Source of the DNA: a virus
Taxonomy: Duplodnaviria > Caudoviricetes
DNA length: 64,000 bases
Reading direction: 5' to 3' (one strand)
IMG/VR virus record: IMGVR_UViG_3300028549_000963
Span: 1,749-65,748 of that record
Of this stretch, positions 3,315 to 58,700 are shown piece after piece. Every line of letters begins with the position of its first letter. Within the stretch, counting starts at the first letter, position 1. The notes under the pieces were generated by a model that saw only the letters and a list, made by a program, of their open reading frames with translations, did not search any database and had not been told where the DNA came from. A program made the translations under genes and the position numbers.

Positions 3315-3324
3315 AGTGCATACA

Positions 3325-3353: not shown

Positions 3354-3373
3354 CAGCAAATTACAGAGAAATT

Positions 3374-3676: not shown

Positions 3677-3702
3677 GATAGCTCCTGTTGTTAATGGGAG
3701 AG

Positions 3703-4658: not shown

Positions 4659-4707
4659 CAACTGATCGCGCCCCCGGGTAACCGGGGGCGCGCACTGAGG
4701 AGGTGTT

Positions 4708-5063: not shown

Positions 5064-5067
5064 CATG

Positions 5068-5095
5068 AATAGGAGGCCCGCAAGGGCTTCCTATT
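5068..5095 (+). terminator. Terminator-like hairpin
   Basis: AATAGGAGGCCC-GCAA-GGGCTTCCTATT, 12-bp stem with GNRA loop; short U tract. Confidence 0.55.
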
Positions 5096-5327
5096 TAGAG
5101 CCCGACCGATTCGCCGCCGGGGCGGCACTGGGACGACATACCCGGGTGGGTCAGTTCATAGCCAAGGCATGCGACCGGTTTCAGTGCCCGCCCGCCCTCC
5201 CATCCTCGACCCCGGTACCCGGGGAAACAAATACAACTGAGTAAGTAGGTGACGAGTGTCACCCAACTGCTAACTATTACGAACATATCGCGATACCAAG
5301 CGTACCGCAGAAAAGGATACACACAAC

Positions 5328-5975: not shown

Positions 5976-6365
5976 CGCAGCACACCGCAACAGCGGTGCC
6001 CCCTTACCTCGCACGTAAGGGGGCACCGTACCAACCGAGGCAATGCTATGTCACGTCATACCATCTCCATGGGCGGTGTAGTCCTTACACGCGCCGAAGC
6101 GATCGTCCCAATCGACCGCTCAGCCATCAAGTAGCACGACGGCACGCACGGTACCCCAGTACCGTGCGTGCCCCCTTTTACAGCCCGACCCGTAGGGCCC
6201 CCAGTCACCGCGGCACGTACGATACGTACGGCACAACCTTTAAAACAAAACCATACGTCACGAGGGGCACGAGGGTGCCGCACGAGCCGTGGACGGAGGG
6301 TGACGCGGAGCGCAGGGATACGGGGGTCACGTACGAGCCGTGATTGAAGACGGACGCGGAGCGCC

Positions 6366-6897
6366 CCGTGACAAAATGTCACACCTTACAATTTTTACTA
6401 ATAGGCCAAAAATATAGCTAATCGATATTTGGATATCGATAAAACGATATCGATATCCAAATATCGATTAACTTCCTTAAGATTTTTAATTTATGTACTT
6501 TCCCTGCAAATCATGTACTTTGTATGTACTTTCAGATTTGCTATAAACTCTTTAATAATAATTACTTATATAGTTCTATGTACTTATGTAGTAAATTCTA
6601 TATTGGTTATGTAAATTTAAAAAAGGCCTATTTTGAGCTATATATGTATGTATATGTGTATTGTAGAACTTATAGTTCAGACTACATAAGTACATAGACC
6701 CCCGCAAGTGCCTCTCCCAGAAGGACTTATGGCTGATTTGAAAGTACATAGAAAGTACATGAGGTACATTGGCCCTTTTTAGGGCTCTTACGGCACTTTC
6801 GGCACCCTCGCCACCCCCGTGCCGCTCGCCACCCAGCCACCCCGAGGGGCTCCCCCGACACCCCCGAGTATCTGATACCGTGACAATTTGTCACACC
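6366..6897. other. AT-rich origin-like region with inverted ATGTACTT iterons, flanked by two palindromic boxes
   Basis: Non-coding and AT-rich. ATGTACTT at 6493, 6513, 6524, 6578; reverse complement AAGTACAT at 6688, 6742, 6753 (AGGTACAT at 6762). CCGTGACAA(A/T)(A/T)TGTCACACC at 6366-6385 and 6878-6897. Confidence 0.55.
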
Positions 6898-6999
6898 CCC
6901 TTTTGACCCTGAAACGCAGGCCTATCCCGCGCCCCGCGCCCTGCGTCCGACCCCCTTTACCGACCCCTCTTAGGAGGCTCATCATGAAAGGATACGACT

Positions 7000-7227
7000 A
7001 TGCTAATCAAAATGCCAGACGACTCGTGGCTCGACCCACGAGCCGTGAAAGCTATATACCACAACACCGACGAAAAGGTTGTATACGCCCACGTCGGCCC
7101 ATCTGAAGAAATTCCGTTCTTCCCACCCCACTGCAAGAAGTTTGAAAACTCCCCAGAGCCCACGCTCCAGGAACTCTCGGACACGATCGTAACACTCATC
7201 AACAACGAACTCGGGAGACGAGTATAA
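7000..7227 (+). CDS. Hypothetical protein
   Basis: AAAGGA RBS; compact spacing before 7239. Confidence 0.65.
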   Translation: MLIKMPDDSWLDPRAVKAIYHNTDEKVVYAHVGPSEEIPFFPPHCKKFENSPEPTLQELSDTIVTLINNELGRRV

Positions 7228-7238
7228 CTGAGGAGACC

Positions 7239-9194: not shown

Positions 9195-9258
9195 GATTCC
9201 CCGGCACCCGCCCTCGCCACTGCCCCGCAAGGGGTACGCGCGGGCAATCCCACTTTCT

Positions 9259-9361
9259 AATGCCGGCCGAAGAAGTACATTGACGGATAAGCTCTTTCGG
9301 GGGCCCCGTGCGTGGCTTGTTGAGGCCGGCTCCACTGACTTACGGGTACGACACCGGCATT
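9259..9361 (+). ncRNA. Candidate three-way-junction structured RNA
   Basis: Closing helix AATGCCGG(9259-66)/CCGGCATT(9354-61); internal arms CCGAAG../..TTTCGG and CCCGTG/TACGGG; intergenic. Confidence 0.45.
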
Positions 9362-9438
9362 CTCTCCCTTATGGGAGGGGTATAAGCTCTCCTCGTTTTA
9401 TCTGGCGAAACGCCAGACATACCCACCACTTTCCTACC

Positions 9439-28578: not shown

Positions 28579-29925
28579 ATGAACCCGTATACTTGGCAGA
28601 TCCCTCTTGTCCGATCAGTGGTAACCAGCCTACAAAAAAATAAACTCTTCATATCTGGATTCCCAACGGGTTCTGGAAAGACGGTGATTGCTCTAGCCGC
28701 TGCGCGAGAGTTGAATATGAAGCACCTAATTATTGCGCCTAAAGTCAGTCTCACGCAGTGGCGGCGCGCGGCTGAATCAATGGGGTGCGCAGATCAACTG
28801 ATCGGCATCATCAATCCGGAACGGATCTCGAAGCCCGGAGGCTGCGAGTTTTATACTCGCGAAAGGCGCTGGGTGCTACCACCGAATTGCGCGGTGGTTT
28901 GGGACGAGCCCCATCGCTCGTGCTCCGGACCGAAGTCCGTCACAACCAAGGCGCTCGCCGAGCTAAAGGCTTTCGGCGCCTCGCTGCACGCCATGTCCGC
29001 CACGCTCGCTGACAGCCCGCTTAAACTGCGGGCCCTCGGCTGGTGGGCGGGCCTTCACCAATGGCACGACCCGTCATTCTACGGCTGGTGCAGGGCCAAC
29101 GGCTGCTCGCTCGAGGAGATGAAACGCTACGACCCGCGGACCGGCATGATCGGCACCCGGCGGGTCATCGAATTTACAAAGAACCGTGACGAGGCGAAAG
29201 CCTACATGGAAGGAATCCGCCGCTCTTTCGGCACTAGGTTCATGTCGCTGAAGCCGGAGGACATCCCGGGCTTCCCGACGGAGGACGTCGGCATTGAACT
29301 CATCGACCTTTCCAAGCAGGAGAAGGCGACGATCGATAACGCTTACGCCGAGATGTCGGAACGCATGAAATCCCTTACGGCTTCGCCAATGGCGGAGAGC
29401 GGGCGGGAACGTGAACGCGTCGAATTCGTCATGGCTGAAGCCGTGGCCGAACTCGCATCGAACTACATCGACGAAGGTAACAGTGTCGTCGTCTTCTTCA
29501 ACTTCACCGAGCCGCGACTGCGGTTCGAGGAGGCCTTCCGTAAGCTCCGGCCCGGGGAATCCCTGGCTGTAGTACGAGGAGCGCAGAAGGACGATGAACG
29601 CCAAGCCGGCATCGATGACTTCCAGGCTAACCGGACCTATTGCATATCCGTGATGGCTGAAGCCGGGGGCGCCGCGCTCAGCCTGCATGACGAGCTGAAG
29701 ATGCGTACCCGCGTATCGCTTATCCTGCCGGGTTGGAACTCCAGCACGGTCAAGCAATGCCTCGGGCGTATCAGGCGGTGCAACGGCACCCACGCCACGC
29801 AGCGGTTCATATTCGCCGCGGGCACCGTGCAGGAGCGCGTCGCCAAGACAATGCAGAGGAAGATCGATAACCTGGATGCGTTCAACTTCGCCGAAGAACT
29901 AACAGACACGGACTTGATTCCGTAA
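28579..29925 (+). CDS. Superfamily 2 DNA helicase
   Basis: Motif I PTGSGKT, motif II WDEPHR, motif III SAT, motif V EAGG..LSL, motif VI QCLGRIRR. Confidence 0.9.
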   Translation: MNPYTWQIPLVRSVVTSLQKNKLFISGFPTGSGKTVIALAAARELNMKHLIIAPKVSLTQWRRAAESMGCADQLIGIINPERISKPGGCEFYTRERRWVLPPNCAVVWDEPHRSCSGPKSVTTKALAELKAFGASLHAMSATLADSPLKLRALGWWAGLHQWHDPSFYGWCRANGCSLEEMKRYDPRTGMIGTRRVIEFTKNRDEAKAYMEGIRRSFGTRFMSLKPEDIPGFPTEDVGIELIDLSKQEKATIDNAYAEMSERMKSLTASPMAESGRERERVEFVMAEAVAELASNYIDEGNSVVVFFNFTEPRLRFEEAFRKLRPGESLAVVRGAQKDDERQAGIDDFQANRTYCISVMAEAGGAALSLHDELKMRTRVSLILPGWNSSTVKQCLGRIRRCNGTHATQRFIFAAGTVQERVAKTMQRKIDNLDAFNFAEELTDTDLIP

Positions 29926-34561: not shown

Positions 34562-35197
34562 ATGCGAAACGCCATAAAGATTGACGGCATGTCGATCGCG
34601 GCGGGGAACAGCAAGATGGGCAACATCATGCACATCAACCTGCCCCCGCCGATGACTTGCGACCACGATCTGCCGTGCTATAAGGACGGCTGCTACGCAA
34701 TGAAGTTCTACCGACTGCGGAAGAACGTAAAGACTAGTTGGGACTCCAACTGGGAAGCCCTACAACGCGACCGTAATAGGTACTTTGAAATTATCACGAA
34801 CGCCATACGTATGGTAAAACCGAAGATGTTCCGTTGGCACAGCGCAGGCGATATCATCGACCTGAACTACCTGTTCCGTATGGAGGACGTAGCCCGGAGA
34901 AATCCGGAAACGAAGTTTATGGCGTTCACGAAAAAATACGATCTCGTGTTCGATGCCGATAAGGAGTTTAAAGAGTACAGGACTGTGCCGCATACGCAGA
35001 TCATCCTCTCGGCATGGCCAGGAATGATCATACCGGAACATCTGAAACGGGAACATCCCGTCGCGTACATGTACGACGCAAAGAATGTGGATCCGGAGAT
35101 CCCGGAGACAGCGCTGCCGTGCGGCGGTGGCTGTGAGAAATGCGGAGTCTGCTGGCTGATGAAGCCCGGACAGTCGGTCGTCTTTGACCGGCATTAA
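34562..35197 (+). CDS. Gene product 88 (GP88)-like protein, Cys-rich
   Basis: GNSKMG, C-x5-C-x4-CYA, FRWHSAGDI, FTK, terminal C-x3-C-x2-C-x2-CW...V.F..H. Confidence 0.8.
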   Translation: MRNAIKIDGMSIAAGNSKMGNIMHINLPPPMTCDHDLPCYKDGCYAMKFYRLRKNVKTSWDSNWEALQRDRNRYFEIITNAIRMVKPKMFRWHSAGDIIDLNYLFRMEDVARRNPETKFMAFTKKYDLVFDADKEFKEYRTVPHTQIILSAWPGMIIPEHLKREHPVAYMYDAKNVDPEIPETALPCGGGCEKCGVCWLMKPGQSVVFDRH

Positions 35198-35858: not shown

Positions 35859-36382
35859 AAAGAGCTAAGTATTACACCGACGAATGGTGTCCGGAATGCG
35901 AACGCGAAGTCCGTATCCCCGCACGGGTAAAGCCCATGCCGAAATGTCCGAAGTGTCATAAGGATCTTCTGCCATGCTCGGCGTGCGACGATGAGACTCA
36001 CCGACGCTGCTCATCCTGCACGGACGGAGACTGCAAATTCAAACTGCACCCGGGATTCAAGGCAAAGAAGACGGGCTTCACACTGAAGGCGCTGCTCAAG
36101 GTAGCGGACAAGGCATACGACAGCTCCGTCGTCTTAAGCCCCGCCGTCGCAACCGTTGACGTAGGGGACACCCTTGCATCCTTTATCGTCCGTGAAATCA
36201 AGGACACGTTCGATGTATGGGCCACGAAACAGGATCAACTGCAGGAAGCCGCACGCGTGCTCCTGACTGCAACGAACCAGCTGGACGGAGTGCGAGCCGA
36301 ACTGAATAAGTGTTGGTACCGGATGAACGATCGGACGCAGAAGCGTAAGATACAAAAACGACGGAAGGAGATTAAGAAATGA
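35855..36382 (+). CDS. Zn-finger-containing hypothetical protein
   Basis: EWCPECE, CPKC, PCSAC motifs. Confidence 0.7.
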   Translation: MKRAKYYTDEWCPECEREVRIPARVKPMPKCPKCHKDLLPCSACDDETHRRCSSCTDGDCKFKLHPGFKAKKTGFTLKALLKVADKAYDSSVVLSPAVATVDVGDTLASFIVREIKDTFDVWATKQDQLQEAARVLLTATNQLDGVRAELNKCWYRMNDRTQKRKIQKRRKEIKK

Positions 36383-37641
36383 TGAAACCGAGACCATCAA
36401 GCATGCCGATGTTACAAGCATGCGCCCGCTGGGTCAACAGACCTAAAGCGGAAGATGACAAGAAGGATGACCTCGATATCGCCGCGGACGAGGGCACCCT
36501 CATCCACGCGACACTCGAGGCTCTCGCGGAACGGCCTGTCGTCAACTGGGACGACGCGATCGATAATGACTTCCAGCTTCCGGACGACCTCAAGTCCGTG
36601 GTGCGGGACGCGAGCCTGCAGGTCCGCGACATCTTCAGCCAGGGGCTGCCGGTGGTCACGAAACGGATCCTCGGTCTCGACTCCGAGGCCCACTACGAGA
36701 TCGACGACATCCTCTGGGAGGACGGCAAACCCGTCTACGCACCCCCTGCGGGACGCCCGTCCTGCCGGAGGATCATGGATGCGATCTACTGCGAAGTAGG
36801 TCTCGACTCCGGAGTATGCCTGCCGGGCACGGCCGACCTTGTCGGCATCCTCGGTACGCACGCCTGGCTCGTGGATTACAAGAGCAACCGGGTCGTACGT
36901 TCCCACGACGCCCAACAGGAAGCCTACATCGTCGCCCTGTTCAAGACGCTCCCGGAACTGCAAAGTGCCGAGCAACGCATCGTGGCGCCCCGCCTCGGGA
37001 ACGCCCACGCGCCCGCGATGTTCAGCCGCGATATGATTGGCTCGGTTTCCGCCGGGCTGCAGCATATTGTAGACCGCGCAGATGATCCGTTCAACCCGGG
37101 CGAGCCCGGCGAGCAGTGCGCGTTCTGCGCCGGTAACGGCCGGTGCCCCTACCAAGCGGCATCGCTGAAGGATATCATCGAGCCCGAAGGCGCGTTGATC
37201 CCCGCAGGCGCCTGGCGTGCACTGATGGATCCGAACATCACGCCGGAACAGCGCGGCTGGCGACGCGGAATCGCCAAGCAGATGGACATGTACTCCGACG
37301 CGATCAAGGATGACGATAAAGCGTGGGCCGAACAGAACCCCGGTGTCATGCCGACGGGCTGGACGGTATCACTCGCCCGCGGACGACTGTCCGTGGACAA
37401 GGAACGCCTGGCTGAATTAAACGAGAAGATCCGGTTGACGTTCGGACTCACTTATGAGATAATGGAGTCCTTCTCGGTGCCTGATCGCAAGCGCATCGCG
37501 GAGTATGTATCGATGGCACGCGGAATGTCGGCGGATGATGTGAGTAAGGACATGGATAAGGCAATCGCAGGATTCATGAAACGCGGAGCGGACACGGTCC
37601 GTTTCACGCAGGAAAAGATCAAGAAACAAATTAGTTCGTAG
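36379..37641 (+). CDS. PD-(D/E)XK nuclease (DUF2800/Cas4-like phage recombination nuclease)
   Basis: RPSS...L..C, A.EGT.IH..LE, GTAD, VDYKS, Q...Y, C.FC...CP motifs; adjacent to SSB and Pol A. Confidence 0.85.
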   Translation: MMKPRPSSMPMLQACARWVNRPKAEDDKKDDLDIAADEGTLIHATLEALAERPVVNWDDAIDNDFQLPDDLKSVVRDASLQVRDIFSQGLPVVTKRILGLDSEAHYEIDDILWEDGKPVYAPPAGRPSCRRIMDAIYCEVGLDSGVCLPGTADLVGILGTHAWLVDYKSNRVVRSHDAQQEAYIVALFKTLPELQSAEQRIVAPRLGNAHAPAMFSRDMIGSVSAGLQHIVDRADDPFNPGEPGEQCAFCAGNGRCPYQAASLKDIIEPEGALIPAGAWRALMDPNITPEQRGWRRGIAKQMDMYSDAIKDDDKAWAEQNPGVMPTGWTVSLARGRLSVDKERLAELNEKIRLTFGLTYEIMESFSVPDRKRIAEYVSMARGMSADDVSKDMDKAIAGFMKRGADTVRFTQEKIKKQISS

Positions 37642-38920: not shown

Positions 38921-40933
38921 ATGAAACATCGATTCAGCATTAAAGAGAACGAGGTCGTAGCTATCGACTTTGAAACCCTCTACGACTCCAAGACCAAGTA
39001 TTCGCTCAAGGTTATGACGCCGCATGACTACGTACGGCACCCCCGGTTCGATCCTTACCTCGTGGCGTTCGCCTCGGACGGCGGGGAACATTTCGTCGGG
39101 TCGCCTCTGGACTTCGACTGGGCGAGCCTGGACGGCGCGCACTTCGTCGCGCATAACGCGACCTTCGACGGCATGGTGCTCAAGCGCATGCACGAGTTGA
39201 GGATGATACCCTATTTCAAATACTCGCTGGACTGCACCGCGGACTTATGCGCGTGCCTGGGGCTCGGGCGTTCCCTCTATGACGCGGTCCAGAACATACT
39301 CGGCATGACCATCTCCAAGAAGGTGCGCGCCGACATGGACGGCAAGACGCTGAAAGACCTGACCGCGGACGAGGCTACGGCCCTGTACGAATACGGCGGA
39401 TCCGACGCGGACCTCTGCCTTGAGCTGTGGCGCGCGAAGTCGGCTGAGTGGCCTCAGCTCGAAATCGAAATCAGCCGTGAGAACCGCGAGGCCAACTGGC
39501 GCGGCGTGCGGATTAACAAGGGGGCTACCGTCGAAGCCCTGCGTATCCTGCAGAACAAAGCCGAGACCGCGCTCTCGATGATGCCGTGGGTAAAGGAGGG
39601 CGAGAAGCCGACCTCGACCACGGCGCTCAAAGAATATGCTGACCGGTTCGGCCTGCCGAGATTGAAAAGCTATAACAAGACGGATCCTCTGATGCAGGCG
39701 TGGGTTAAGAAGTATGCGCCGCTCTATCCGTTCATCCAGGCACGCCTGGATTACAGCTCGACCGCTCCGCACATCTCACGCGTGGAGGCCATGATCGAAC
39801 TCGCGGACCACGACGACGTTGTCAGATTCGACTCCCTCTACTTCGGGGCGCACACAGGCCGGAGCAGCGGAAGCGCGTCCGAGAAGGATAAGAGCGGCGG
39901 CGCCCGCATGAACTTCTTCAACATCCCGAAAGGCGATGACGACGGGCTCACGCACGGCGTAGACCTTCGCGGACTTATCATCCCGCGCCCCGGCAGGAAG
40001 TTCATCATCTATGACTTCTCGAATATCGAGCCCCGCGTGACCCACTGGGTTGCCGGAAGCACGGAGTTCTTGAAGCTCGTGGCGAAGGAGAACATCTACC
40101 AGGCTAACGCCAAGGCGATGGGCTGGTTCCCGTACGACGAGACGGGATTGAAGACGCGCAATAAGAAGCTCTATCAGCTATCGAAGGCATGCGTTATCGG
40201 AATGTCCTACAGAATGGGATCCGGAAAGTTCCTTGCGCAATGCAAGAAGATGGGCATCCAGCTCGATCCCGTGCCGAAGGACCAATGGAACCTCGACAGG
40301 CGGCTGAAGTTCGTGCTCGCCAACGTGGAGGGCATCGACTGGCGGGGTCCGGAGAACGAGGAGTACATCTGCGCGTTCATCGCGTCCGACCGCGTCGTGC
40401 GGGAATGGCGTGAAAAGAATCCCTTCGTCACAGCCCTGTGGAAGAACCTCGAGATAATGCTCCAGACCGCCGCGAAGAACGGCCAGAAGGAGTATACGTT
40501 CTCCCTGCCGTCCGGGCGGAAGAAGACTTACTACCGCCTTGGCATGCACGTCAAGCCGAAGAAGGTGCACGACCCGGACGACCCGACGAAGTTCGAGACG
40601 CGTATTGAGACCCAGCTGTACGCGGCCACGTCGAAAAGCGGGGACCCGATGTCCCTGCACGGCGGCGTGATCACGGAGCATCTCGTGCAGGCGATCTCCC
40701 GGGACATTATGTTCCAGGGCGCCCGCGACGTGTGGGAGTCTGAACAGGACTGGACATATATCGGAAACGTCTACGACGAAGTGGTATTCGAGGTACCTGA
40801 GTACGAGGCTATGCGGGCCACGGAAGTGATCCCGCGACTCCTGTGCAACGGCACATCAAGAGCGTGGACAAAGGACCTGCCGCTCGAGCTCGACCTCGAA
40901 GGCGGCGGCATAAAGGACAAGTATGAGAAATGA
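38921..40933 (+). CDS. Family A DNA polymerase with 3'-5' exonuclease domain
   Basis: ExoI IDFET, ExoII HNATFD, ExoIII Y...D; HTGRSSG; motif A DFSNIEPRV; motif B K......Y; motif C VYDEVV. Confidence 0.92.
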   Translation: MKHRFSIKENEVVAIDFETLYDSKTKYSLKVMTPHDYVRHPRFDPYLVAFASDGGEHFVGSPLDFDWASLDGAHFVAHNATFDGMVLKRMHELRMIPYFKYSLDCTADLCACLGLGRSLYDAVQNILGMTISKKVRADMDGKTLKDLTADEATALYEYGGSDADLCLELWRAKSAEWPQLEIEISRENREANWRGVRINKGATVEALRILQNKAETALSMMPWVKEGEKPTSTTALKEYADRFGLPRLKSYNKTDPLMQAWVKKYAPLYPFIQARLDYSSTAPHISRVEAMIELADHDDVVRFDSLYFGAHTGRSSGSASEKDKSGGARMNFFNIPKGDDDGLTHGVDLRGLIIPRPGRKFIIYDFSNIEPRVTHWVAGSTEFLKLVAKENIYQANAKAMGWFPYDETGLKTRNKKLYQLSKACVIGMSYRMGSGKFLAQCKKMGIQLDPVPKDQWNLDRRLKFVLANVEGIDWRGPENEEYICAFIASDRVVREWREKNPFVTALWKNLEIMLQTAAKNGQKEYTFSLPSGRKKTYYRLGMHVKPKKVHDPDDPTKFETRIETQLYAATSKSGDPMSLHGGVITEHLVQAISRDIMFQGARDVWESEQDWTYIGNVYDEVVFEVPEYEAMRATEVIPRLLCNGTSRAWTKDLPLELDLEGGGIKDKYEK

Positions 40934-44909: not shown

Positions 44910-45259
44910 CAAACACGGTACTGGCTGCCGTCCTCGCCATCTACATGACGGAGAGTGATTGCGGACGGAACGTGCGCGACGGCGACGGCGGAAACGCCGT
45001 CGGGCCGTTCCAGACATGGAAGATCATGGTGAGGGAAGTGAACCGGGTGACCGGTAAGCACTACACCTACGCGGACCGCCGCGACTTCGTGAAGTCGCAG
45101 CAGATGTGCCGTGACTATCTGACCTGGCATTACAATAGAGGCGTCACGAACGAGTTGGCGTTGGCGTCGAAGTGGATCCGCCCTTACGGGCGGGCTCCGG
45201 AACGCCACGTAAGCAAGCTCCGTAAGGCGTTGCTGAAAGTGAAAGAGGTATTGACATGA
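44906..45259 (+). CDS. Lysozyme-like (i-type/destabilase or SLT-like) muralytic enzyme
   Basis: AI..TES.CG....DGD.G.AVGPFQ motif with catalytic-type Glu in the first helix. Confidence 0.65.
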   Translation: MTNTVLAAVLAIYMTESDCGRNVRDGDGGNAVGPFQTWKIMVREVNRVTGKHYTYADRRDFVKSQQMCRDYLTWHYNRGVTNELALASKWIRPYGRAPERHVSKLRKALLKVKEVLT

Positions 45260-46188
45260 CGGACAAAGAACAACAGTTTGTCACTGCGTGCAGGGCTACG
45301 TCGCTCAGCGACGAGAACCGTGCGCAATGGGAACAGTACTGTCATCTAACCTCCGCGGCGGCGAAGACCGCATACGCGGAAAGTGTGATCGACGAATGGA
45401 ACCGTATCCTCGCGGGATCCCCGAGCGGCAAGCCCCCGCCGGATGGGCGGTCTAAGGACTGGTATAAGGAGATCCCACGGGGTCAGTCGAACCCTATCCA
45501 TGCCGCGATGCAGAAGATATGTGATGACGACCTCAAGGCTCAGGAAAAGGATCCGACAGGACGTTCCGCTAAAGATGGCGGAGCTAAACTGGACGCAGGT
45601 AAACCGAGACTTGGATTGGTGCTCGGCGGGTTCGCCAACGCCCTTATCGAAGTCGGAAAGGTCGGCACTCTCGGCGCGGCTAAGTATTCGGACAACGGAT
45701 GGATGACTGTTCCGAACGCCAAGGAACGGTACACCGACGCGGAGCTCCGACACTGTCTGAAACGTCTCGCCGGAGAGATCTACGATCCCGAATGGGGGCT
45801 TCTGCATCTGGCGCATAACGCCTGGAACTCGCTGGCGTTACTCGAACTGGAACTCAGAAGGATCAAGACGGAGAAAGGGGAAACCATACCCGAAGGCACG
45901 ACCTTCGAGAAGGGTTTTGCGATGGTACCGAACGAGGGTCTCAAGTTTGTGATTAAAGGGGGTCTCCCTAAGTGCGAAGCCCTCTCAGGCTTCACGCCGA
46001 TCGACCCGACGGTTCCGGACAAATTTAAGACTAATCAACCAGAGAAGAAGGGAGGTGAAAAAGAAATGGTCAAGAAAGCTAAATGCGCCGCTAAAGGCGG
46101 AGCAGTCAAGCCCGCAGCCAAGCCCGCAGCCAAGGCGGCGATGCCTATGATGCCGGCTAAGAAGATGGCGAAACCCGCTAAGAAGTAG
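45256..46188 (+). CDS. dATP/dGTP diphosphohydrolase-domain (DUF5664-like) protein with K/A/P-rich C-terminal tail
   Basis: GAKLDAGKPRLGL, AL.EV.KV.T.GAAKY..NGW, RY.DA..RH, DPE.GL.HLAH.AWN.L.L. Confidence 0.85.
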   Translation: MTDKEQQFVTACRATSLSDENRAQWEQYCHLTSAAAKTAYAESVIDEWNRILAGSPSGKPPPDGRSKDWYKEIPRGQSNPIHAAMQKICDDDLKAQEKDPTGRSAKDGGAKLDAGKPRLGLVLGGFANALIEVGKVGTLGAAKYSDNGWMTVPNAKERYTDAELRHCLKRLAGEIYDPEWGLLHLAHNAWNSLALLELELRRIKTEKGETIPEGTTFEKGFAMVPNEGLKFVIKGGLPKCEALSGFTPIDPTVPDKFKTNQPEKKGGEKEMVKKAKCAAKGGAVKPAAKPAAKAAMPMMPAKKMAKPAKK

Positions 46189-46752: not shown

Positions 46753-49700
46753 TTATTCCTTTCCCGTTCTGAAGAACCCTGCGGCGGAGGGGTTGTCCTG
46801 GAAGAACTTAACGTCCTTCTCCGTGATCTCGTTCGGCGGCACCACCTTGTAGCCTAGCACGGTCTGAGGCAGTTCGTCCGACGCGAGGAACGCGGAGACG
46901 TCACCGCCCAGATCAGCCGACTGCGACTTCCGAGTATCATACACGCCACGGCCGTACGGGTCAAGGAAGCTCTCACGGATCGCCTGGTTGGAGATCAGTT
47001 TAAGATCGCCCGTACGGTCAATGTGACGGTTCTTATCCCGCGACTTGATTGACTTCATCAGATCACGGTGAATGTAATTCAGCCGGAGGAGACCGCGGGA
47101 CGCGCGTTCCAGGCGTGCCACATCAGCCTTCTCGTTCGGGAATTGCGGGAGGGACTCCTGGATCTCTTCGTAGAGAGGGGCGCGGGCCTCGGCCATCGCG
47201 GCCTTCAGCTCGACCTTGGGATCATAACCGTTGATCCGCAGGGCGTCCAGGTGGTCGATGACCATGGACCGCATATCCGTCCAGGCGCCCTTGTGAGTCT
47301 TCGCGAGGGCGGCGTAGCTGTCCGCGTCGGCCCAGTCCGTGAAGATCTTCTTCATGTCCTTGACCGCGGTCGTCTTCGATGTACCCTTACGGATGATGCC
47401 GACGGCGGAGAGGGCACCCGCTTCCGGGGCCCTGCTGATACCGGCGACGGAGAACGGAAGGAACGCGCCGGCGAGGTTGGCCGTAGCCGACTTGCTCATA
47501 TCCGTCGTGAACCACCGCTCCCAGAAGCCGAGCTCGCTGAACGGCATATCCCACCCCATCGAGGGGTTCTTGCCGGAGAGGCCTTCGAGTGTGCGCTGCA
47601 CAGGCATCGACATCTTCGACGTGAACGACTGATAGGGATTGATGAACCAGTTCGCGACTTCCCAGCCCTGCTTACCGAAATGCATGTAGTACCGGCGCTT
47701 ACCGGTGGTCTTCATGTCGCCCTCGTCGCCCGTGAGCCCGGGGATCAGATCGCCGAACGGGATCCCGAGAACCGTACGCGGGAGCATCTTCTTCAGCCCG
47801 CCGATGAACGGGGAATTACCCATGCGCCGCAGGAGCGGAGTGATGTCCGCGTCATGCGCACGCCCGGGTTCATTCTTCCACATCGCCACCTTATCGTCAT
47901 CGTCGTCGCCGGATCCGCTTCCAATACCGTACGCAGCCAGCTGCATGAGAGCAGGTACGCCCCACATGACGTGGAAGTACATGCGCGCCCAGCGTCCGAA
48001 CAGGTAGGCGCGGGTCTTTTGCCCCGTGCTCATGCCGAACAGTCTGCGTGTCAGTACACCGCCGCCACCGGCGAGCCATGCGCCGAACGTCCATTCCCAG
48101 GAGAACCACATGACCTTCATGACGTTGAGGAACCGAGGAGTCATATAGGCGAAGTTCGTGAAATCAATACCGCCGATTTCGGGGTTGCCGATTTCACGGG
48201 CCCATTCGCGCATATCACGGACGGGATCGAACCAGCGACCGGCCTTCCGTGCGGCTTCCGCCGCGCGGTTCGTAGCCAGGGCCAGTGCGGCCATCTTCGT
48301 CGCGTTAATGAAATACTCGAACGCCAGGGTGGACGGAGCGTCGAGCAATCCGTTCATGACGGCCTTCGCGTGCTGCGCGGCCCTGTTACCATAGGTGTTA
48401 CGGACCATCGCCACTGCGGAGTCTATATCCCGCAGGAGGACGGACTTGTCATGGTCGGTGATGTTGCTCACGCGGGTGAGGATCTTCGCGTTCACCAGGT
48501 TGGCGTGGGTGATAGCCTTGATCAGAGCCGGGTCGTCCGAGCCGATCGTGTCGAGGAAGTCCATGAACTTCGGCGCGTCGAGACCCATGTCCTTCATGCG
48601 ATCGGAGAACCAGCCCTTGCCCTTCGCCATCTTTTCGACGGCGCGGCGCCCCGTTTCCGGCAGGAAGCCGGAGAGCGTGGCGGTCATGCCGGAGGCGGCG
48701 ACCTGGGACTCGAACACCGTGGCGATCGGGAAGAACCAGGAGAACATGACGCTCATGGACTTCGACCAGGTGAGGACGCGGTTCAGCTTCCCGTCGATCG
48801 CCGTCCTGTGCATAAATCCGCCGACCGCGAATAGCTGTTCCATCATACCGGAGGCTTCACCGCCCGTCAGCTTGTTGAGGATCGCGTATGTCGGATCGTC
48901 CGCCGGATCCTGGGCCGCCATCACTTCCGACACGCTTACGACTTCCGGCGGGAGCGTCACTTTCGTGAACCCCGTGGTCCGGACATCGCGGAGCATGTCA
49001 TAAAGTTTCTTGGCGTTCTCGCGCCCGCTCTTGGACTCGTCATAAACGAACATCGTGTCGCCCGGCCGGCCGTAGGAACGGATCCAATACCGCGCGGCGG
49101 CTTGCCACACGACATCCTGGATCGTATCGTCATTGGCCTCGCCGGGACGCATGATGATAAGGGGCTTTCCGTCCGGACCCTTCGTCAGCAGGGATGCGTT
49201 CAGCGCGGCCCTGTATTTGATAGCGCGACCCATGTCACGCCCGAACCGTCCGAGCGCCTCATAGGAGGTCAGGTTGGCGGGGAGTGCGCCCGTCATGTTA
49301 TAGATGTCATGGAAGGAAGGCCCGATAGAACCGAAGTCTACGTTCTCCTCGGCGGCCGCGCGTTCCATCGCATTCATGAAGCCTTCATAGCCGGCGTCCT
49401 TGAGGTCGACCTTCTTCACGAGGCCTCCGCGCCATGCCGTCTCATGCAGCTTACGCACGGACAGACGGTAGATCTCCGCCGCCAGATCCTTCAGCAGGGC
49501 GTTGGGTGTACCGAAGCCGGGGGCGACGTTCCGGAAGGACGGGTCGCTCGTGATCAGACGCGCGACAGTCTCTGCGGATTCGTTACCCTCGAACCGGGTG
49601 CCCGTGTTGAGATCACGGTACAGCTGGAGCATACGGGCGTAGTTCTGATTATCCGCCACGGATGCTACGGTCTTCCACCCCGAGAGGGATGTCTTGCTGA

Positions 49701-52700
49701 CCGAGGCCTTGACGGATTTCTCGAGGGAGTCATACGCCTTCTCGACTTCATCCCGGTACTCGGGTGTCGGGGGTACGTCACGTTTCCTGGCGTCCGCCTG
49801 GTAGAAAGCGCCGCCTCGGAACAGAGGAGCCATCGGGCCGTTGTCGAGCATCATCTTTCCTTCCGCGTCGGCGAGCCAGCCGATGGATGCGTAGGAAGTC
49901 TTGGCCTTCAGGTACTCGCTGCGAAGTTCCGTCGCCAGCTTCTCCATATCAAAGTCAGTCGACTCACGACCTGCGGCGATCAGCTTCTCCAGTGCGGACG
50001 AAAGTTTACCCGCGCGACCCTTGAACTCGGCATCAACTTCGTTCACGGGGATCGCGAAGCGGGCGTCGTACAGGGAGACGCGGCGTGTGCGCGAACCGTC
50101 GATCGACAGTTCCTTACGCTCACGGGCGTACAGCCAGCCGCGCTTATTCAACCGGTGCAGGAATACCTGCTCGGGGTCGTTCTCGTTATCCCATGCGTCC
50201 TCGAACCTGGTGGACGCGCGGGTCTCGCCGATCGCGCGCAGGATTGTCGCCAGAGCCTTGGTGCGCATGACCGCCGGTACGTTGTTGGCGATGTTCTCCA
50301 TGGCGATGTCGAGCTTGTACGTGCGCCCGGCTACGCCGGCCACGCGCTTTGCGGACATGTCCATAAAGGTCTCGACCAGTTCTATGTCAGTCATTGACGC
50401 CCACTTGACAGGGAGCACGTCATAGATCGTCTTCCACGGCAGGTCGGAGACTTCAAGAATGTTTCCGAGGGGCACGTTGGCCCTATCCTTCGCGCTTCCC
50501 GCCCGCATATAAACGGCCTTCGAGAAGAAGTCCACAAGGGCGTACTCCTCGCGGGAGAACTTATGTCCGAGTTCGTCACGGAAGAAACCGGAACGCAGAT
50601 ACTTGATGCGCGTCGCGAGGCTCTCATTGCTCTCCCAAGAGTACTTGCCGTCACGGATCGTGATGCCGGAGGCTTTCTCCTTGCGGGCGAACCGTATCAT
50701 CCCTTCGTCGCCGAGACCGAGCATCAGCCTCTGGTCCTCGGCCTTATGCAGGAACCGCGTAGCCGTGGCTTCCGTGGTGCCGTCCTGCAGGACGTCGCGC
50801 AGCTCGAGCCCGTCATAGTCCGGCAGCACGAAGCTGGCGATCCAGAAGTCCGTGCCGAGGATCTTGATGTCATAAGCGTCGATCTCATCGGCGTATCCGG
50901 TACGCTCGTTAAATTCCATGGCTTCGGAGAGCGAGGTCTCGCGGTCCGCGGCGATCGCCGTCCCGTCTTCGAGAGCGAGCAGCTCCTCGAATTGCGGGTT
51001 CTCGGATCCGCGCACGGCGTGTACGCCGGTGCGTCCGACAGCCAGCGCCGCGTGCAGATAGACGAGGGCGCGGACGCTCGCGTCATAACGCTGCCCCGCC
51101 CTGTCCTGACCGCGGAAGGATTCGAGCGCGAGGGCTTCGGTGATGAGGATCTTATGCAAGTTGCCCTGTACCGAACCGAGGGAGAGCATCAGAGCCTGGA
51201 ATTCACCCTGGATCTCCTGTGACTTATGCGCGGCTTTCAGACGGCCCGTGCGTTCATCCAGCAGAAGACCGCGGAGTTCGTTGAATGCGAAGCGGACGGT
51301 AAGCCCCGTCGGATTCGCGCTTCCGGGCGCGTCCATGAGTACCGCCGCCATGGCGTTCTTCTCAGCCAGGCGGATCATCTCATTGACCGTCGCGCCGAAC
51401 GTGACCCTCGCGTCGTGGGCGTTCTGCCCCACCAGTGCGTTGGCGATGTTCACAGCATGGCGGCTCTTCGCCGTCGTATAAGCCTTGCGGGCGTTCTGGT
51501 AGACTTCCTTGTCGAGCTTGTCCCTCATGTCCTCCAGATAAGTCTGTGACGCTGCGAGCCCGAGGAAGGCCTCACCTGTCTTGCGGTCCACTCCCGTCTC
51601 CCAATCCTGCAGGAGCTGGCGGGCCAGTTCGGAAGCCTCGAGGCTGTTGGCCCCGGCGACTACGATGCCCATGTCGGACTCTAACTTTTTCTTATCCGCG
51701 GTCTGGATCGACACGCCGGGCTTGACCTTTACGGCTTCCCCGACCTGTCTCGGCTGAACCACGGGCTCCGCGTTCTCGAGCCCTGTCTCCGCGGGGGCGT
51801 TCTCACGGGGAGTTTCCCCGTCGACATCGCCCGAGGGCTGCGCGGCACCTTCCGCCTGCGCTGACGGCACGGGGGCGACGGGCGTCCATCCCGGGACTCC
51901 GCTCTCGCGCGGTATCTCCCCGTAGGATCTCGCCAGCACGTTTAATTTCTTCGGGCGGAACTGGCTGAGTTCGTCTTCCTCGTCAATAAACGCGGAAGCG
52001 TCGATACCCTCTTCCATATCCTCGACCGGTGCCTGGGCTCCGACGGTGGTGGTCTCCGCGTTCGGGAGGGCTTCGCCGAAGATCGCGTCCACGATGGACT
52101 TCGTATGCGGCGTGGCCGTCGCGTCCACCAGGAAGGTGTCGGCGTTCTCCGCGCGGTAGAGTTCCTTCGTCTCGCGGGACAGGGGGATGATATAGGTTTC
52201 CGTGACGTCGAGGCCGCGCATCGCGAGGACGCGGCGGTAGGCCTCGATCTGCACACGGTGGCGTTCGCCCTTGGACTCGCCTTCGATAACACCGTCCACG
52301 CGATAAGTCTCGTTGTAGACGTTGGCGATGTGCGGGTTCGACTTCATCGTCTTCAGATCGTACAGCGCGTATGTGCCGTCGGCCTTGCGGACGAGAACGT
52401 CCACGGTACCGGCATCCTCGCCGGCCCATGCGATAAATTCGGTAGCCACGGCGCCCTTGGCCCGCAGGAAGTCCCGCAGGAACACTAGGTCCGCGCGGTC
52501 TGACGTCTCCAGCTTCCCGCTCAGAAGATCTTCGAGAATCTTATGCTCGACAGTCCCCTCCTCGGAGGTGGCGTTCCACTCAGCCATGACCTGCGCGACA
52601 GTCATGCTGCGCTTCTCGGCCTGCTGTTTAGCGCGGGTCTCGCGGTCGAAGAAGAACAGGCTGAAGTCGCCGATCTTCGTCGTGATGGAGTCGACTGTCC

Positions 52701-55700
52701 GGCCGTCCGGCAGATCGTAGACATGCTTTGTCTTATCCGACCCCTCGGCCTTGACTTCCCGCATGACCGCTCCGGGCATCGTCCGTGCGATGAAATCCTG
52801 CAGGCTTTCCTCGGGGGCGGGTTCCGCCAGCGCGTACTTGACCGCGGGGGTGTAGACGCTCGTCTCGAGGGCGCCGACCAGCATCTCGCCAGTTACGGCG
52901 CCGGTGATGTTACCGTCCGCGTCAGTGATGACGGCCTTGGGTCCGGCTGCGAGAGCCAGGTCCGCCGCGATCACATTGTCAGAGCGGTTCTGTCCGGCCA
53001 TCTGACCGTTCATGGCGGCCTCGAATAACGCCTTGTTTGCGGCGAACAGCCCGTCCTTCTTCATAAGGTCGCGACCGAACGCCGTGTCGAGCATGGCGCT
53101 ATATTCATTCAGTGCCTCCTGCGCGCGCTTCGTCTCTCCGGCGGCGGCGAGGATGTTGGCGTCAATCTGCACTGCGGACACAAGGGCCAGAGTCGCCCCC
53201 GGATCCCTGTAGCCGGTCTTGTCATAGAGGTAGGATACCCCGTTGGCCGTGCTTGCCGCGACGGGCAGGCCGCGCGCCGTGTAGTCCAATGACAACAGGC
53301 GCAGAGCGCGGGCCGCGGAGGCTGCGGAGAACTGGGCTGAGGCCTTCGTACGACCGTTCCAGGTGCCCTTCGCAAAGCCGAGGCCACCCTTGATGACGGC
53401 TGGTAACAGGTACGCATCCTTAGTCGCCTTGCCGGCTTCCGCCAGGGACAGGTACATGGAGGCGCGGGCCCGGTCAAGTTCGATCATGGGCTCCGAGGCC
53501 CCCTTCTCGCGGAGGATGACGGAAGTCTTCGGTTGCTCCGGGATCTTCTTTGTGCCGAGAACTTTCGGCGCCGCCACGGGTGTGATCGGTTCGTATCCGC
53601 GTGCCTTGATCTCGCCTTCTCCGAAGAAAGCCTGCAGCAGATCGGCTTCTCCCGCTCCTGTGTCGGGAGTACGGGCTTCGTACCCTGCGTGGAATACGCG
53701 GGGCTTCCCGCCTTCGTACAGGGACTGCAGCTCGGACACGGCGTTCGCCTCCAGGCGGAGGGTGTCCGCATCGGCTCCGAGTCCGTTGGCGACGGCATCG
53801 GCGACCTTGCGGCTGATCTCGAGCTGGACTTCCAGACCGAATGCGGGGAGCATCGACTGGCGTTCGCGCACGGAGGTGAGCGAGCGGGGCGCGGCGAGGG
53901 CCGAGTACTGCAACAGCAGGTAATAAATGTCGGATGCAGTGAACTGCTCCGTCACCTTATTGCCGTCCTTATCAAGGTACGTGAACGGGATCGTGCCTTC
54001 GGGGACTCCGTGAACCTTGGTCGCTCCGTCGCGGAGGGCCGTCAGACCTTCACGCATGCTTGTCGGAAGGCTGTCCCCGGATGAGGCGGAGGCCATGCCG
54101 ATCGTCGGCATCCGGTTACGGGTCGAAGGAGCGAGCACCGCCGAGATGAAATCATTCGACGGGATCTTGCCCGACCGGTACTGATCCGAGTATGCGCGGA
54201 AGAACCGGCTCCAGACCTGCTCGACTACGAGCGGGAACCGTACCGGCTTCTGTGACACGCCGCCGAACGCGACCAGTTCCTGTTCGCGCTCCGTGAGCAG
54301 GAGCTTGCCGGGGATGACGCGATCGATCTTCTCCTGCGTCTCTTTAGGTGTCATGTCCAGGGTCGCGCGGAACGGCAGGAACCGTTCGACGATGAGCTGG
54401 AGGGGTTCCTTATCAATAGTGACCGTGGCGCTGAGTGCGCCGTCCGCTCCGACCTTGACCGTGCTCTTCAGGATCTTGCCCTTCTTGGTCTGCGGAAGCA
54501 GGGTCTTCAACTCGCGGGCGAGCTTGGACTTCTCTATGGACCCGGAGTGCGCGCGGGAGGTCACTGCGAGCCACGCCTGTGACGCGTCAAGCAGAGCCAT
54601 CAGCCTCGGTTCGCGGACGGGTATGTTCAGACCGGCCAGCTTTTTCTTACCACCGACGATTGCCTCGCCCGCATTCCGGACGTCCTTCTCCAGACGCTCC
54701 ATCTTGTCGACGAACGCCCCGTCCATCTTGTTCCAGTCAAGAGCCCGTTTCATCTCCGCCACGGACTGCATGCCGCGGATAAGCTCGGCCACGCGGCGGA
54801 GCCCTTCGTATGTGGATGCGCTGACCCCGCGTTCGGACGCGAGAGCCACGATCTTCGAGGCCGAACCGGGGCGCATGAAAGACAGGATGCCGTCCTTGTA
54901 CGGATCGAGCGTGCCTTTCCTCTGCAGCTCCATCTCGTATTGCTTGATTGCCGCGCGTGCGGTCTTGTCCACGTTAGCCGTGTCCGTATGTCCGTCCGGG
55001 TCAAGGTCGAGTCTGTACATAGCCTCGATCGCCTTACCTTCATCCGACTTGAGCCAGGCCAGCCAGAGCGAATGGAACTCCTTGAAGCCAGCAAGGTCCT
55101 TCACCCCGCTGTTATACGCGAGGAAGGCGTATAGATCCATCGTGGCCGGCGTGATACCAGCGGTGATGGCCAGACCGTCCTTGAGGAAGTCGTACGTGCC
55201 ATTGGTGAGCACTGAAAGCATGAACTCCAGGAACCTCGCGGATTCCGCGTCCGGCTTGCCCTTACCACCGAATACGCGGGCCCACGCGGCCTTGCCTTCG
55301 GGCGAAAGTGCCGCGGGTGCCGTGAGAACCGGAGGCGCGAATGCACCTGTGGCAGGATCCGGGGAGAAAGCTGTGAGCTCGATGCCCGCGGGGATGACGT
55401 AGTCGAGGATGCCCGTACGGCAAGTGACTGCCAGTCCGCGTCCGCGCCCTGCAATTTCCGCGGCCATGGTGGCGAACTCCGCCGCCGCCTTAGAGTCCGT
55501 GAAGTCGGGCGCCGTGTGCCCGGGGAACTTTAACACCCCGTCGGTAAAGAGGGTGGACTCGACGCGGCCTGCGTTGGCCCAGCCGACGAAAGTCTCCAAC
55601 AGTCCGCCGATCCAGCCCGGCAGCTCGCCGACGTTGGCGCCCATGCGGGTCAGCTCGATAGCCATCGCGTTCGAGATCGCGCGGACGGCCTTGTCGTGCT

Positions 55701-58700
55701 CGTTCAAAAGTTCCTCGACAGTAGCGCCCTTCTTTGCGAGGGCTTCAAGGTACTTCGCGGCGTTGTAGAAGCGCGGCATGCCGGTCTTCTTATCATAAGC
55801 GATAAGGAATCCGCCCGAACTGTCACCGTCATGGTCGAGGCCGGCCTTCTGCTGCGACGCGGTATCGCGGCGCACCTGGGCTCCGGGTCCCGGCACGGGC
55901 GTGCCCACCGGTACGGGCTTCTTCGAGAGGACCCACTTGGTCGTCGACAAGCCGGACTTATCCTTCATCGTAACCTTCTCCGGCACGAGGTAGGTGTACT
56001 TGTCCGTCCCGTCCGCCTTCACGGTGGACACGGGCGCGGATGCGCGGGAGTACATCTTGGACGCGTCGTTATCATGCGGCGTACGGACGTCCATACGGCG
56101 CGTGCCGCGTACGATCAGCCCTTCCGGCGTGCTCTCGGTGGAGGACAGGTCCGGAGTCTCGCTGATCAGCTCTCCGCGTTCATTAAATGTGAGGTCGAAC
56201 AGGTCGAGGAACTGGAAGAACTGCCCGTCGGGGGTCTTCGTCCCGTCCATGTTCTCCAGGAGGCCCTTGAAGCCGTCCTTGCCGTCGGCGAGGAGTGCCA
56301 GGTATTCCTGCGTCTTGCCAGTCTTCACGACGCCGACGCACTTCTGCAGTCTGCGCCAGAACTCGTCCGCCGTGACGCCCTTCGCCAGCTTCATGTCATA
56401 CCGGAAGCCAGGGGTCGACACGTTCACCAGGGAAGAAGGAGGCGCGTCCATGATGGACCCATCCGCCGCCGTGATCTTACGGCCGGGGCGGGCGTCCCCG
56501 CCGTCAGTCATAGCCTGTACGCGCCAGGGATCCATAGCGTCGGCGCCCTTGACGGCCTTGTAGCTCTCGTCGGCCGGAAGCACCTTGGCATTCGGTGTCT
56601 CGATGTTCTTCATGCCGTCAGCCTTCGTCTCGGCAGCCAGCTCGCGCAGACGCGCCAGCAGCTTCTGCCCGAACGGGGCCTGGAGCAGGGGGTCACCCCA
56701 TGGCAACGCTTCAATCTTGTCGCCTGTTTTAGATGCCAGAGCTTTTAAGACGGGGCTCTCATTGACCGTGTCAACCATGGCGTCCTCGATCAGGCGGCGC
56801 ATGACGGGGTTGTCGTACTCGCCCTGTCCCTCTTCGACGTGAAGCAGGAGCTTGGTCAGATTGACGCGTTCCTTCTGCAGCGTGGCCATGATCCGGCGGA
56901 GCGCATCCGCGGGGATGCCGATATCCTTGATGACGGACTTCCGGTCGGGGGCTGCGGCGTAGACCATGTGCGTAACGCCGGGTACGGTGAAGAGGACCAT
57001 GACGCCCTCGCGCTTGCCGTCGCCGAGCATGATGTCCCGGCGGACTTCCGCGTTGAGGGTCTTTGCCAGTTCGCCGACCGTGAAGGTCTCGCCGGACAGG
57101 GTAACCTTGGCGTCAAGCCTTCCTGCCAGGAGATGATCCAGGGCGGAGGCGCCTTCGCCCTTCGCCTTTGTCAGCGGACTCTCCTTGAGGGAGTCCAAAT
57201 CGAGGATCGCATCCACGCCCGTGTCCGTGATCGCCTGCTGCGTGAGCTGGGCGATGCCCGTGGTCGTGACGCCCTTCGGGGCCCGCAACTGCTCGCCCTT
57301 GACGGCGAGTACGTTCTTGACCTTCTTACCCGCGACGGTGAGATCACCGACGCTCGCGATGTGGTACTTCAGACTCTCACCACCGGCGGAGTCGCCGGCC
57401 GCAAGTTCCATAAGGGGCATGAACCGGGCTTCGCTGACTGGGATGCCGCCCTTCAAAGCTCCGCCTGCGGCGTCGATGAATAGACCGAACTTGGCGTCCT
57501 TGATCCGTGCCGTCTCGCCCATGGAGCCGACGACATAAAAGCGCTTCGGCCCGATCATATCGGCGCCGAGGTTGTTGATCACGGCCTTATACGCCACATC
57601 GTACGAGACATCCGCTTCGAGCCCCGCGAACGCCGTGACTGCCTGACGCGGGATCGACACCAGGAACGGGGTCTTCTCGCCGGGACCCGGCATGAAATGC
57701 GCGACACGCTCGCCCTTCAGATACTGGGCGGAGATAAGGCGCTCGATCTCGGCGGGTGTCGGATCGGAGACCGTGACGCCGGGGCGGCGTTCATCCATCT
57801 CGCCGTCATAGTACTCGTCATAATCCCGGGGGACGGGGACCGACATGCGCTTGAGACTCGTGACGTTCGAGAACACGGGCGTGCCGTCGGGCCACACTGC
57901 ATTCCGGACATAAGATTTGTGCTCGGCGGATCCGGCCTTGACGCCGTAGCTCTCGTACACGCGGGTCGCCGCGTCCGAGCGCAGGAATGCGTACATACCG
58001 GCCGACTGTCCCGGGATCAACCCGCGGACCGCCGTGCCGACTTTCTTATCCCTGTTGATGCCGTCGCTCTTCACCGTCCCCATGGGGATGTTGGCGTAGT
58101 AGGCATTCAGGAAGAAAGAGACAGTACCGCGATCGCCGGCGGAGTTCGCCTCGTACCAGGAGAGCTTCTCCTCAGTCTTCCCGTTCGCCCGCGCGGCCAG
58201 GTCAAGGGAGTCACCGCGCAGGAGCTCGTCCGTCAACGCGACCGCCGCGCCGACGTACTGCTCTTCCGTGGCGTTCTGTTCCGCCAGGGATTGAGCGGCC
58301 CGCTTCATGCGCAGCGCGACGGTTTGCAGGCGCAGGGACATCGTAGCCATGCCTCCGTCGTATGTTCCGAACAGATTGCGAAGGCCGTCAGCGACGGGGT
58401 ACGCCAGCTTGGTGCTCTTCTGTCCGAACTCGTCCCTTCCGCCTTCCCGCTCGACGGGGTGGCGGGACTCGTAAGCGACTTCATCGGCCTTGGCGTTGAT
58501 GAACGCCCGGTCCCGGAGGATCCCCGACACGGGGTTGCCCGGCTGGAACAGCTTGTCCACGACATTCGCATAAGCCTCCATGCGTCCGGTAAGCCATGCG
58601 GCGATCCGGTTCCGGTGCTCTGCGTAGGGCTCGTCTTCCTTGACCGTGGACGGGATCGCCCCGTTCGCGATAATCTTCGAGAGTTCTGTTTCCGCATCTT

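Follow-up and report, generated by a model that had tools for sequence, protein, structure and literature searches.

A conserved central module with two-barrel RNA polymerase signatures in giant polyvalent-type proteins of uncultivated phages

Two-barrel RNA polymerases (RNAPs) are the most ancient transcription enzymes, and divergent lineages of them in phages (YonO, crAss-like gp66, P23-45 gp96 and gp64) have informed both the origins of polymerases and the ways in which an infection can start without the host polymerase. Eight residues are invariant in all two-barrel RNAPs (Ruprich-Robert and Thuriaux, PMC2919709). The beta-like barrel contributes one Asp and, after it, two basic residues (Rpb2 D837, K979 and K987; QDE-1 D709, R738 and K743), and the beta'-like barrel contributes an R-x-P element and a D-x-D-x-D triad (QDE-1 R962, P964 and D1007/1009/1011) (PMC2919709). 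Among the phage enzymes, gp66 of phi14:2 (2,180 amino acids, aa) is packaged, injected and transcribes the early genes; gp96 of P23-45 is a 5,002-aa fusion of a tape measure protein and a virion RNAP, the latter originally recognized by its DFDGD motif (PMC10770324); and the RNAP YonO of Bacillus phage SPbeta acts late and is not part of the virion (PMC5467207). CrAss-like phages, Flavobacterium phage Fpv1 and P23-45 already provide examples of a two-barrel polymerase embedded in a giant virion protein, and the protein considered here is a probable further variant. It is encoded on a 64,000-nucleotide (nt) stretch of phage DNA (Duplodnaviria; Caudoviricetes), referred to as the window, which comprises bases 1749-65748 of the 65,748-bp IMG/VR contig IMGVR_UViG_3300028549_000963 (CheckV completeness ~52%; GC content ~60%). 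On balance, we favor the view that the central module of this protein (aa ~2120-2990) is a very divergent single-chain two-barrel nucleotide polymerase, as judged from its sequence signature.

The protein, P0001, is a single stop-free translation of a 17.2-kb open reading frame (ORF) on the minus strand (46753..63978; 5,741 aa). The frame is open to the end of both the window and the contig, with its ATG lying 22 nt from that end (63978-64000), and BLAST aligns homologues that start 150-190 aa before the first residue of P0001; the N-terminus is therefore missing by approximately 150-190 aa, cut off by the contig end, and the full-length protein is probably about 5,900 aa long. The four motifs on which the initial annotation had based its proposal of an RNAP all lie in this one frame: GESLKYH (aa 2200, 57361..57381), VKGEQ (aa 2226, 57289..57303), VRTPH (aa 2631, 56074..56088) and DHDGD (55822..55836). 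The last of these, within QQKAGLDHDGDS (aa 2709, 55819..55854), holds the putative Mg-binding triad D2715/D2717/D2719.

Using the C-terminal 1,100 aa of P0001 as the query, we collected 43 giant relatives of 4,636-7,747 aa from JGI, ENA and Logan metagenomes; scans of IMG/VR (with the region of interest, the C-terminus and the alignments as queries) and of GTDB found no relatives. The closest relatives (P0002-P0007) align with P0001 through the region of interest as well in BLAST comparisons within the set of 44 proteins, and the distant ones match it by BLAST only over the N-terminal ~550 aa and the C-terminal ~1,100 aa. The N-terminal region (aa 1-~550, 62329..63978, minus strand) has a BLASTP match in 41 of the 43 relatives, and the C-terminal region (aa ~4640-5741, 46756..50061, minus strand) is kept in all of them at about 25-45% identity. 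Between these two, the central module (55009..57621, minus strand), delimited by a local L-INS-i alignment, a hidden Markov model (HMM) and a motif scan, is the sole middle module found in all 44 giant proteins, although identity between relatives in this region is only ~20-25%. Outside the N-terminal, central and C-terminal modules, which stay constant among the 44 giants, the sequence differs between relatives. In word-index searches neither the region nor a profile of its beta'-like half (267-1,049 aa) retrieved any free-standing or fragment form of the module.

Conservation in homologues was the point on which the initial annotation had been prepared to see its proposal fall. To assess it, the regions around the R-x-P/D-x-D-x-D anchor of the 44 giants were aligned locally with L-INS-i; all counts below refer to this alignment and all numbering to P0001. 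K2204 of GESLKYH, R2632 and P2634 of VRTPH, and the three Asp of the triad with the Gly that precedes them are present in every protein, H2206 is present in 38, and K2227 of VKGEQ is found, followed by G, in 42. The residues singled out in the initial annotation are thus conserved throughout the family, and the proposal withstands this check. Two additional elements stand out on the same strand: D2260-x-D-S-x-K2265 (57184..57201; 'TDFDSYK' in most members), with D in 44 and K in 41 proteins, and N2926-x3-D2930-x2-K2933 (55180..55203; 'SNATFDDxKE' in most members), with N in 43, D in 44 and K in 42. Elsewhere in the module G2177, D2592, G2713 and R2847 are invariant (44/44), and there is strong conservation of R2526, G2625 and P2649 (43 each), N2519 (42), L2593 and D2610 (41 each), G2718 (39), Y2527 (38), R2146 (37) and K2145 (35). 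The triad itself occurs as DHDGD, DNDGD, DTDGD, DEDWD, DEDAD or DFDFD. From R-x-P to D-x-D-x-D there are about 46-58 aa in most members; an insertion in the subgroup of P0001 lengthens this distance to 71-91 aa.

A D-x-D-G-D motif alone proves nothing, because from composition one is expected per about eight proteins of 5,741 aa, and P0001 holds three further D-x-D-x-D strings. It could therefore be argued that in so long a protein the motifs are chance matches with no functional meaning. However, the motif scan found exactly one R-x-P ... G-x-D-x-D-x-D pair per protein, at the aligned position, in all 44 proteins, and no other D-x-D-x-D string in these proteins is preceded by an R-x-P at a site that aligns between them. 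The same residues recur in 42-44 of the 44 giants despite the low overall identity; because of this invariance, which the family alignment sets directly against a chance origin, we dismiss that explanation as extremely improbable.

We then compared the invariant positions with the universal signature. Five of the eight residues (R, P, D, D and D) are invariant in the 44 giants and in the correct order, with a K-G upstream. R2632-x-P2634 is the counterpart of R446/P448 in Rpb1, R962/P964 in QDE-1 and R492/P494 in YonO, and the spacing from R-x-P to the triad in the reference enzymes is 45 aa in QDE-1, 43 in YonO, 39 in gp66 and 38 in both gp96 and gp64. Members of group D read 'PRTPSYNGS..LQTV...LP....G.DHDGDK..LYM' through this region; the gp66 counterpart is 'YRIPNQGQS..LQIV..ILP....GSDFDIDKMYVM' and that of YonO is 'LRSPH....FDNDGDKALII'. 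For the beta-like half, K2227-G resembles the universal 'K-G' (VKGLL in YonO), an element that reads NKG in E. coli beta and QKG in Rpb2; the best local hhalign match places K2227-G on K271-G272 of YonO, in a match that is not significant. Downstream of the triad, N-x3-D-x2-K is also found in crAss gp66 (NAFVDNAKD, aa 1608) and in YonO (NNFTIDFAKT, aa 621), where its D and K are likewise invariant within the family, and it may correspond to a bridge-helix element. Together, the motif order (K...KG, R-x-P, DxDGD) and the spacing between R-x-P and the triad fit a single-chain two-barrel RNAP.

Several observations weigh against this assignment, and most of them speak for the alternative that the module has another fold. 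The signature would then be mimicked by a conserved metal-dependent enzyme, such as a nuclease, a phosphoesterase or a nucleotidyl- or glycosyl-transferase, or by a metal-binding structural domain, such as a Ca2+ site used in assembly. The arrangement of the upstream half is not canonical: the invariant D2260 follows K2204 and K2227, when the universal acidic residue of the beta-like barrel should precede both basic ones, and the two halves of the module lie ~370 aa apart, as opposed to the ~140-aa connector of gp66 and QDE-1. Canonical EF-hand Ca2+ loops also begin with D-x-D-G-D. An EF-hand was rejected for DHDGD itself, which has neither the position-6 Gly nor the position-12 Glu of such loops. 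The two double-psi beta-barrels (DPBBs) that the initial annotation had expected around DHDGD did not emerge from structure prediction. AlphaFold2 gave a pLDDT (predicted local distance difference test) of 34.8 from the single sequence and, for an 871-aa target with an 18-row alignment anchored to full P0001, a pLDDT of 47.5 and a pTM (predicted template modeling score) of 0.31, with low confidence at both the R-x-P and the DxDGD sites; with both models of low confidence, fold evidence for the barrels is absent. Searches with such a model by Foldseek (PDB and BFVD) and by VIA-align wide (48,161 chains) returned helical hairpins and noise and no polymerase, and are uninformative because of the low confidence of the query.

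Sequence and profile searches were similarly negative. Pfam, PHROGs, phmmer against the PDB and a PDB profile search gave no relevant match for the region or for four of its relatives, and PDB sequences yielded no match to a profile of the beta'-like half. Phmmer with aa 2101-2950 yielded 0 matches among 1.84 billion representatives; it also missed the giant relatives, because the similarity is too weak for a database of that size, and BLAST detects them in the small set. There was no tblastn match of the region to 50,697 phage records, and the Pfam model PF05183, the family of YonO, did not match P0001 even at an E value of 10. Profile-profile comparisons were made by hhalign between the 44-sequence core, a 30-sequence YonO family from IMG/VR and an 11-sequence family of crAss virion RNAPs (vRNAPs) from the phage collection. 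The core aligned with the YonO family over R-x-P and DxDGDK without reaching significance (P 0.099). Its matches to the crAss family, at NAxxDxxK (P 0.065) and at DxDxDK (P 0.35), were co-linear and likewise not significant. In the control, the crAss and YonO families, both proven two-barrel RNAPs, gave P 0.78 with the triad unaligned. Because the control cannot link two proven families, the negative result carries little weight. The family HMM aligned to gp96 and gp64 of P23-45 at the DxDGD motif only, with negative scores. Many such families share nothing detectable past the DxDxD region (Chaban et al., PMC10770324).

Language-model embeddings point in the other direction. In the ESM Atlas the nearest Pfam-bearing cluster to P0001 is a phage 'RNA-dependent RNA polymerase' cluster with PF05183 on 98% of its members, at a score of 0.86; the three nearest clusters overall are unnamed phage clusters at 0.91-0.92. 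For a group-D member that is ~22% identical to P0001 in the region, the top two named clusters are both phage PF05183, at 0.89 and 0.88. This proximity lends modest support, as scores below 0.9 are leads only and the two queries are themselves homologues. It nevertheless speaks against an unrelated fold, since two divergent members each fall nearest to phage PF05183 clusters, as does the succession of K-G upstream, R-x-P 46-58 aa before G-x-D-x-D-G-D-K, and N-x3-D-x2-K downstream, which is the order seen in proven two-barrel RNAPs. Based on these results we regard another fold as rather unlikely, despite the lack of any fold or profile match to DPBB enzymes. Of the two-barrel RNAP originally proposed, then, the invariant signature, its order and spacing and the proximity to PF05183 have held up, and the barrels themselves have not been brought out by modeling.

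If the module is a polymerase, the roles of its invariant residues can be predicted. D2715, D2717 and D2719 would hold the catalytic Mg2+; R2632-x-P2634 of the same beta'-like barrel, together with K2227-G and K2204 of the beta-like barrel, would contact the incoming nucleoside triphosphate and the 3' end of the RNA; and the helix carrying N-x3-D-x2-K would act like a bridge helix. Taking crAss-like gp66, the N4 vRNAP and P23-45 gp96 as models, we speculate that the giant protein is a virion component that enters the cell together with the DNA, and that it transcribes the first phage genes as a DNA-dependent RNAP. Packaging and ejection are proposed from the analogy with such proteins, the position of the gene and the polyvalent-type domains of the homologues. 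The further suggestion of the initial annotation, a tie to the ncRNA-dense early region that would make up a self-contained early transcription and RNA-processing system, is conjectural.

Those domains vary from one giant to the next. P0001 contains a PD-(D/E)xK exonuclease-like domain (aa ~3747-3945, 52144..52740, minus strand; phrog_298, E 1.4e-14), which bears out the earlier suggestion of a nuclease embedded in the giant protein and which, by BLAST, is common only to P0003 among the relatives. Other relatives have ART-PolyVal, NADAR, cpYpsA, RNase H, RNase_T or DUF7831 domains instead (precomputed Pfam). No MuF or zincin domain was detected in the giant protein. The occurrence of several unrelated effector or enzyme domains that differ between relatives fits the pattern of polyvalent proteins, which are injected multidomain effectors (Iyer et al. 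2017, PMC5512222); the polymerases listed among them are only N4-like RNAP modules and primases (PMC5512222). The nuclease of P0001 and the ART, NADAR, RNase H and RNase T domains of its relatives would, in our model, be co-delivered effectors. Given the known embedded RNAPs, the polyvalent pattern and the gene context, a virion-delivered transcriptase fused to effectors is the likeliest working model. The proposal in its fullest form is that this is an unrecognized, deeply divergent family of single-chain two-barrel RNAPs, which constitutes the constant central module of polyvalent proteins of 4.6-7.7 thousand residues in an uncultivated clade of ~100-kb phages, forms the largest known polymerase-bearing phage polypeptides and is a transcriptase delivered with swappable nuclease, ADP-ribosyl and RNase effectors; we hold this only tentatively, at a little short of an even chance.

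A true two-barrel polymerase could also serve another purpose than early transcription of injected DNA. It might be a primer- or RNA-templated RNA polymerase resembling QDE-1 or a DNA polymerase of the PolD kind, or it might work only once it has been synthesized within the cell; the giant protein could be, for instance, a scaffold that resembles a tape measure or is purely structural. Some of these roles have precedents: QDE-1 is both RNA- and DNA-dependent (PMC9508822), YonO acts late and outside the virion (PMC5467207), and PolD likewise has two DPBBs (PMC10770324). The phage is uncultivated. Two further points count against the main reading: at ~52% completeness, the contig leaves room for another polymerase encoded beyond its ends, and a search of the plus-strand early region turned up no repeated promoter-like motif, only ribosome-binding-site contexts and a coding-type 6/12-nt repeat. 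Against a different role stand the presence in the phage of its own PolA and primase-helicase, the location of the giant gene apart from and convergent to the replication operon, with a lysin-domain protein following it in relatives, and the fact that every other tested single-chain two-barrel polymerase in a multi-thousand-residue phage protein (gp66 and gp96) is virion-delivered. We consider a different role improbable. P0001 has no match to a tape measure protein family in Pfam or PHROGs. A membrane-spanning assignment for the giant protein was dropped, as a Kyte-Doolittle scan of P0001 revealed no strong transmembrane helix.

The replication genes lie in a plus-strand early and replication block on the rest of the contig; judged from the contigs of relatives, the complete genome would measure ~95-103 kb. 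They include a D5/P4-type primase-helicase (23113-25617) and, at 33.2 bits just below the Pfam cut-off of 34.3, a family-A DNA polymerase (DNA_pol_A, 38921-40933), in agreement with the Pol A/P4-primase module first noted from the sequence. The block also encodes a SNF2/ResIII-type helicase (28579-29925), a GP88-family protein (34562-35197; E 1.2e-18) and a PDDEXK_1/DUF2800 nuclease (36379-37641), all on the plus strand. No Pfam match to the PF00623 (beta'-type) or PF05183 polymerases was found in the 65.7-kb contig; there was none to PF00940 (T7-type) either, a search that is uninformative since control genomes also gave none. The genes upstream of the giant gene lie beyond the contig, and those in a relative (L003) have no family match. 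Downstream, the relatives have co-directional genes, one with an endolysin-type domain; among five neighboring proteins tested in relatives' contigs there was no PHROG structural-gene match and one endolysin match. In a group-D relative (L009) the next gene, 12229-14724, encodes a C-terminal endolysin-type domain (phrog_7, E 3.4e-14). The giant gene of that relative is called as two overlapping ORFs, 3-686 (a 227-aa piece) and 683-12217 (3,844 aa), which suggests a frameshift or an assembly error inside the gene.

Among the closest described systems is the crAss-like vRNAP (gp66, PDB 6VR4), which parallels the putative enzyme in several respects. Both present K/R motifs, R-x-P, G-S-D-x-D-x-D-K and N-A-x-x-D-x-x-K in the same order, share an 'LQ[IT]V...LP' context after R-x-P and reside in very large proteins (2,180 to ~4,650 aa on the crAss side) of ~90-100-kb phages. 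RNAP-bearing ORFs of 12-14 kb (4,000-4,650 aa) were found in many Crassvirales and in Fpv1 (loci L093-L102). Fpv1 is not classified in Crassvirales. The annotation of these ORFs often goes no further than hypothetical, 'virion structural protein' or 'nuclear pore complex protein-like', and the cr53_1 and cr52_1 loci contain 8 and 5 in-frame stops, respectively, under table 11. In some crAss-like phages a large protein encoded in the transcription gene block also includes a PDDEXK domain (PMC7886860), and the pairing of a PDDEXK nuclease in the replication block with another in the giant protein is a parallel to them. However, no sequence homology to the crAss-like proteins is detectable by tblastn or PHROGs, or by hhalign (P 0.065); the triad is DFD[IV]D there and DxDGD here; the spacer between the halves is ~140 aa there and ~370 here; and the proteins described here are larger (4.6-7.7 thousand aa), have conserved N- and C-terminal regions of their own and are encoded by GC-rich DNA (~60%).

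YonO and PF05183 proteins resemble the module in R-x-P-H/S, followed after ~43-50 aa by D-N/H-D-G-D-K, with K-G upstream and N-x3-D-x2-K downstream; they differ in that YonO is free-standing at ~840 aa, and the PF05183 model and hhalign (P 0.099) both fail to link it to P0001. P23-45 gp96 is similar as a giant protein of >5,000 aa with a divergent two-barrel RNAP spotted through DxDGD, putatively so in the present case, but its RNAP occupies the N-terminal part (aa ~327-1124) of what is otherwise a tape measure, whereas the module described here is central. The N4 vRNAP gp50, like other polyvalent proteins, spans thousands of residues and combines a polymerase with variable effector domains, and delivery with the DNA is proposed for our proteins too; the N4-type polymerase, however, is T7-like and not two-barrel.

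If the polymerase assignment is correct, a further lineage that current profiles do not detect would widen the catalogue of two-barrel enzymes, and it would be one fixed at the center of the largest phage proteins seen here, amid exchangeable effector domains. The fusion of an injected transcriptase to a polyvalent effector protein would then recur outside Crassvirales, and the module would be a clear target for expression and structure work. Should it not be a polymerase, it would still be the core conserved throughout a family of giant phage proteins that lacks annotation.

The JGI metagenome scan returned five loci, one of which (L007) has the C-terminus but no core-HMM match. It is a more distant giant ORF (L007:2-11275, on a 59.7-kb contig), with a C-terminal region at 26% identity and a GEDKDGD string at aa 2140 of its open frame; it may carry a still more divergent polymerase module or represent a lineage without one.

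A gene for a PF18909 protein (dATP/dGTP diphosphohydrolase N-terminal domain, E 1.4e-24; 45256-46188, plus strand) lies shortly beyond the 3' end of the giant gene, in convergent orientation, and the domain recurs at the corresponding place on the contig of a relative (L002:17347-17895, minus strand). This protein, which we take to be MazZ-like, hints at dATP/dGTP depletion and perhaps at a genome with modified bases of the 2-aminoadenine type. Two long arrays with 6/12/18-nt periodicity (CGGCTCCGGCTACGGC...) occupy 10248-10776 and 11154-11391; they adjoin a stretch of putative structured non-coding RNA, and their translation would give a low-complexity protein rich in Gly, Ser, Tyr and Asp. 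Finally, a 907-aa ORF that runs off the left edge of the window (2-2722, minus strand) carries a BspA-type leucine-rich repeat at its C-terminus (LRR_5, E 4.5e-16), as would fit a fiber or receptor-binding protein.

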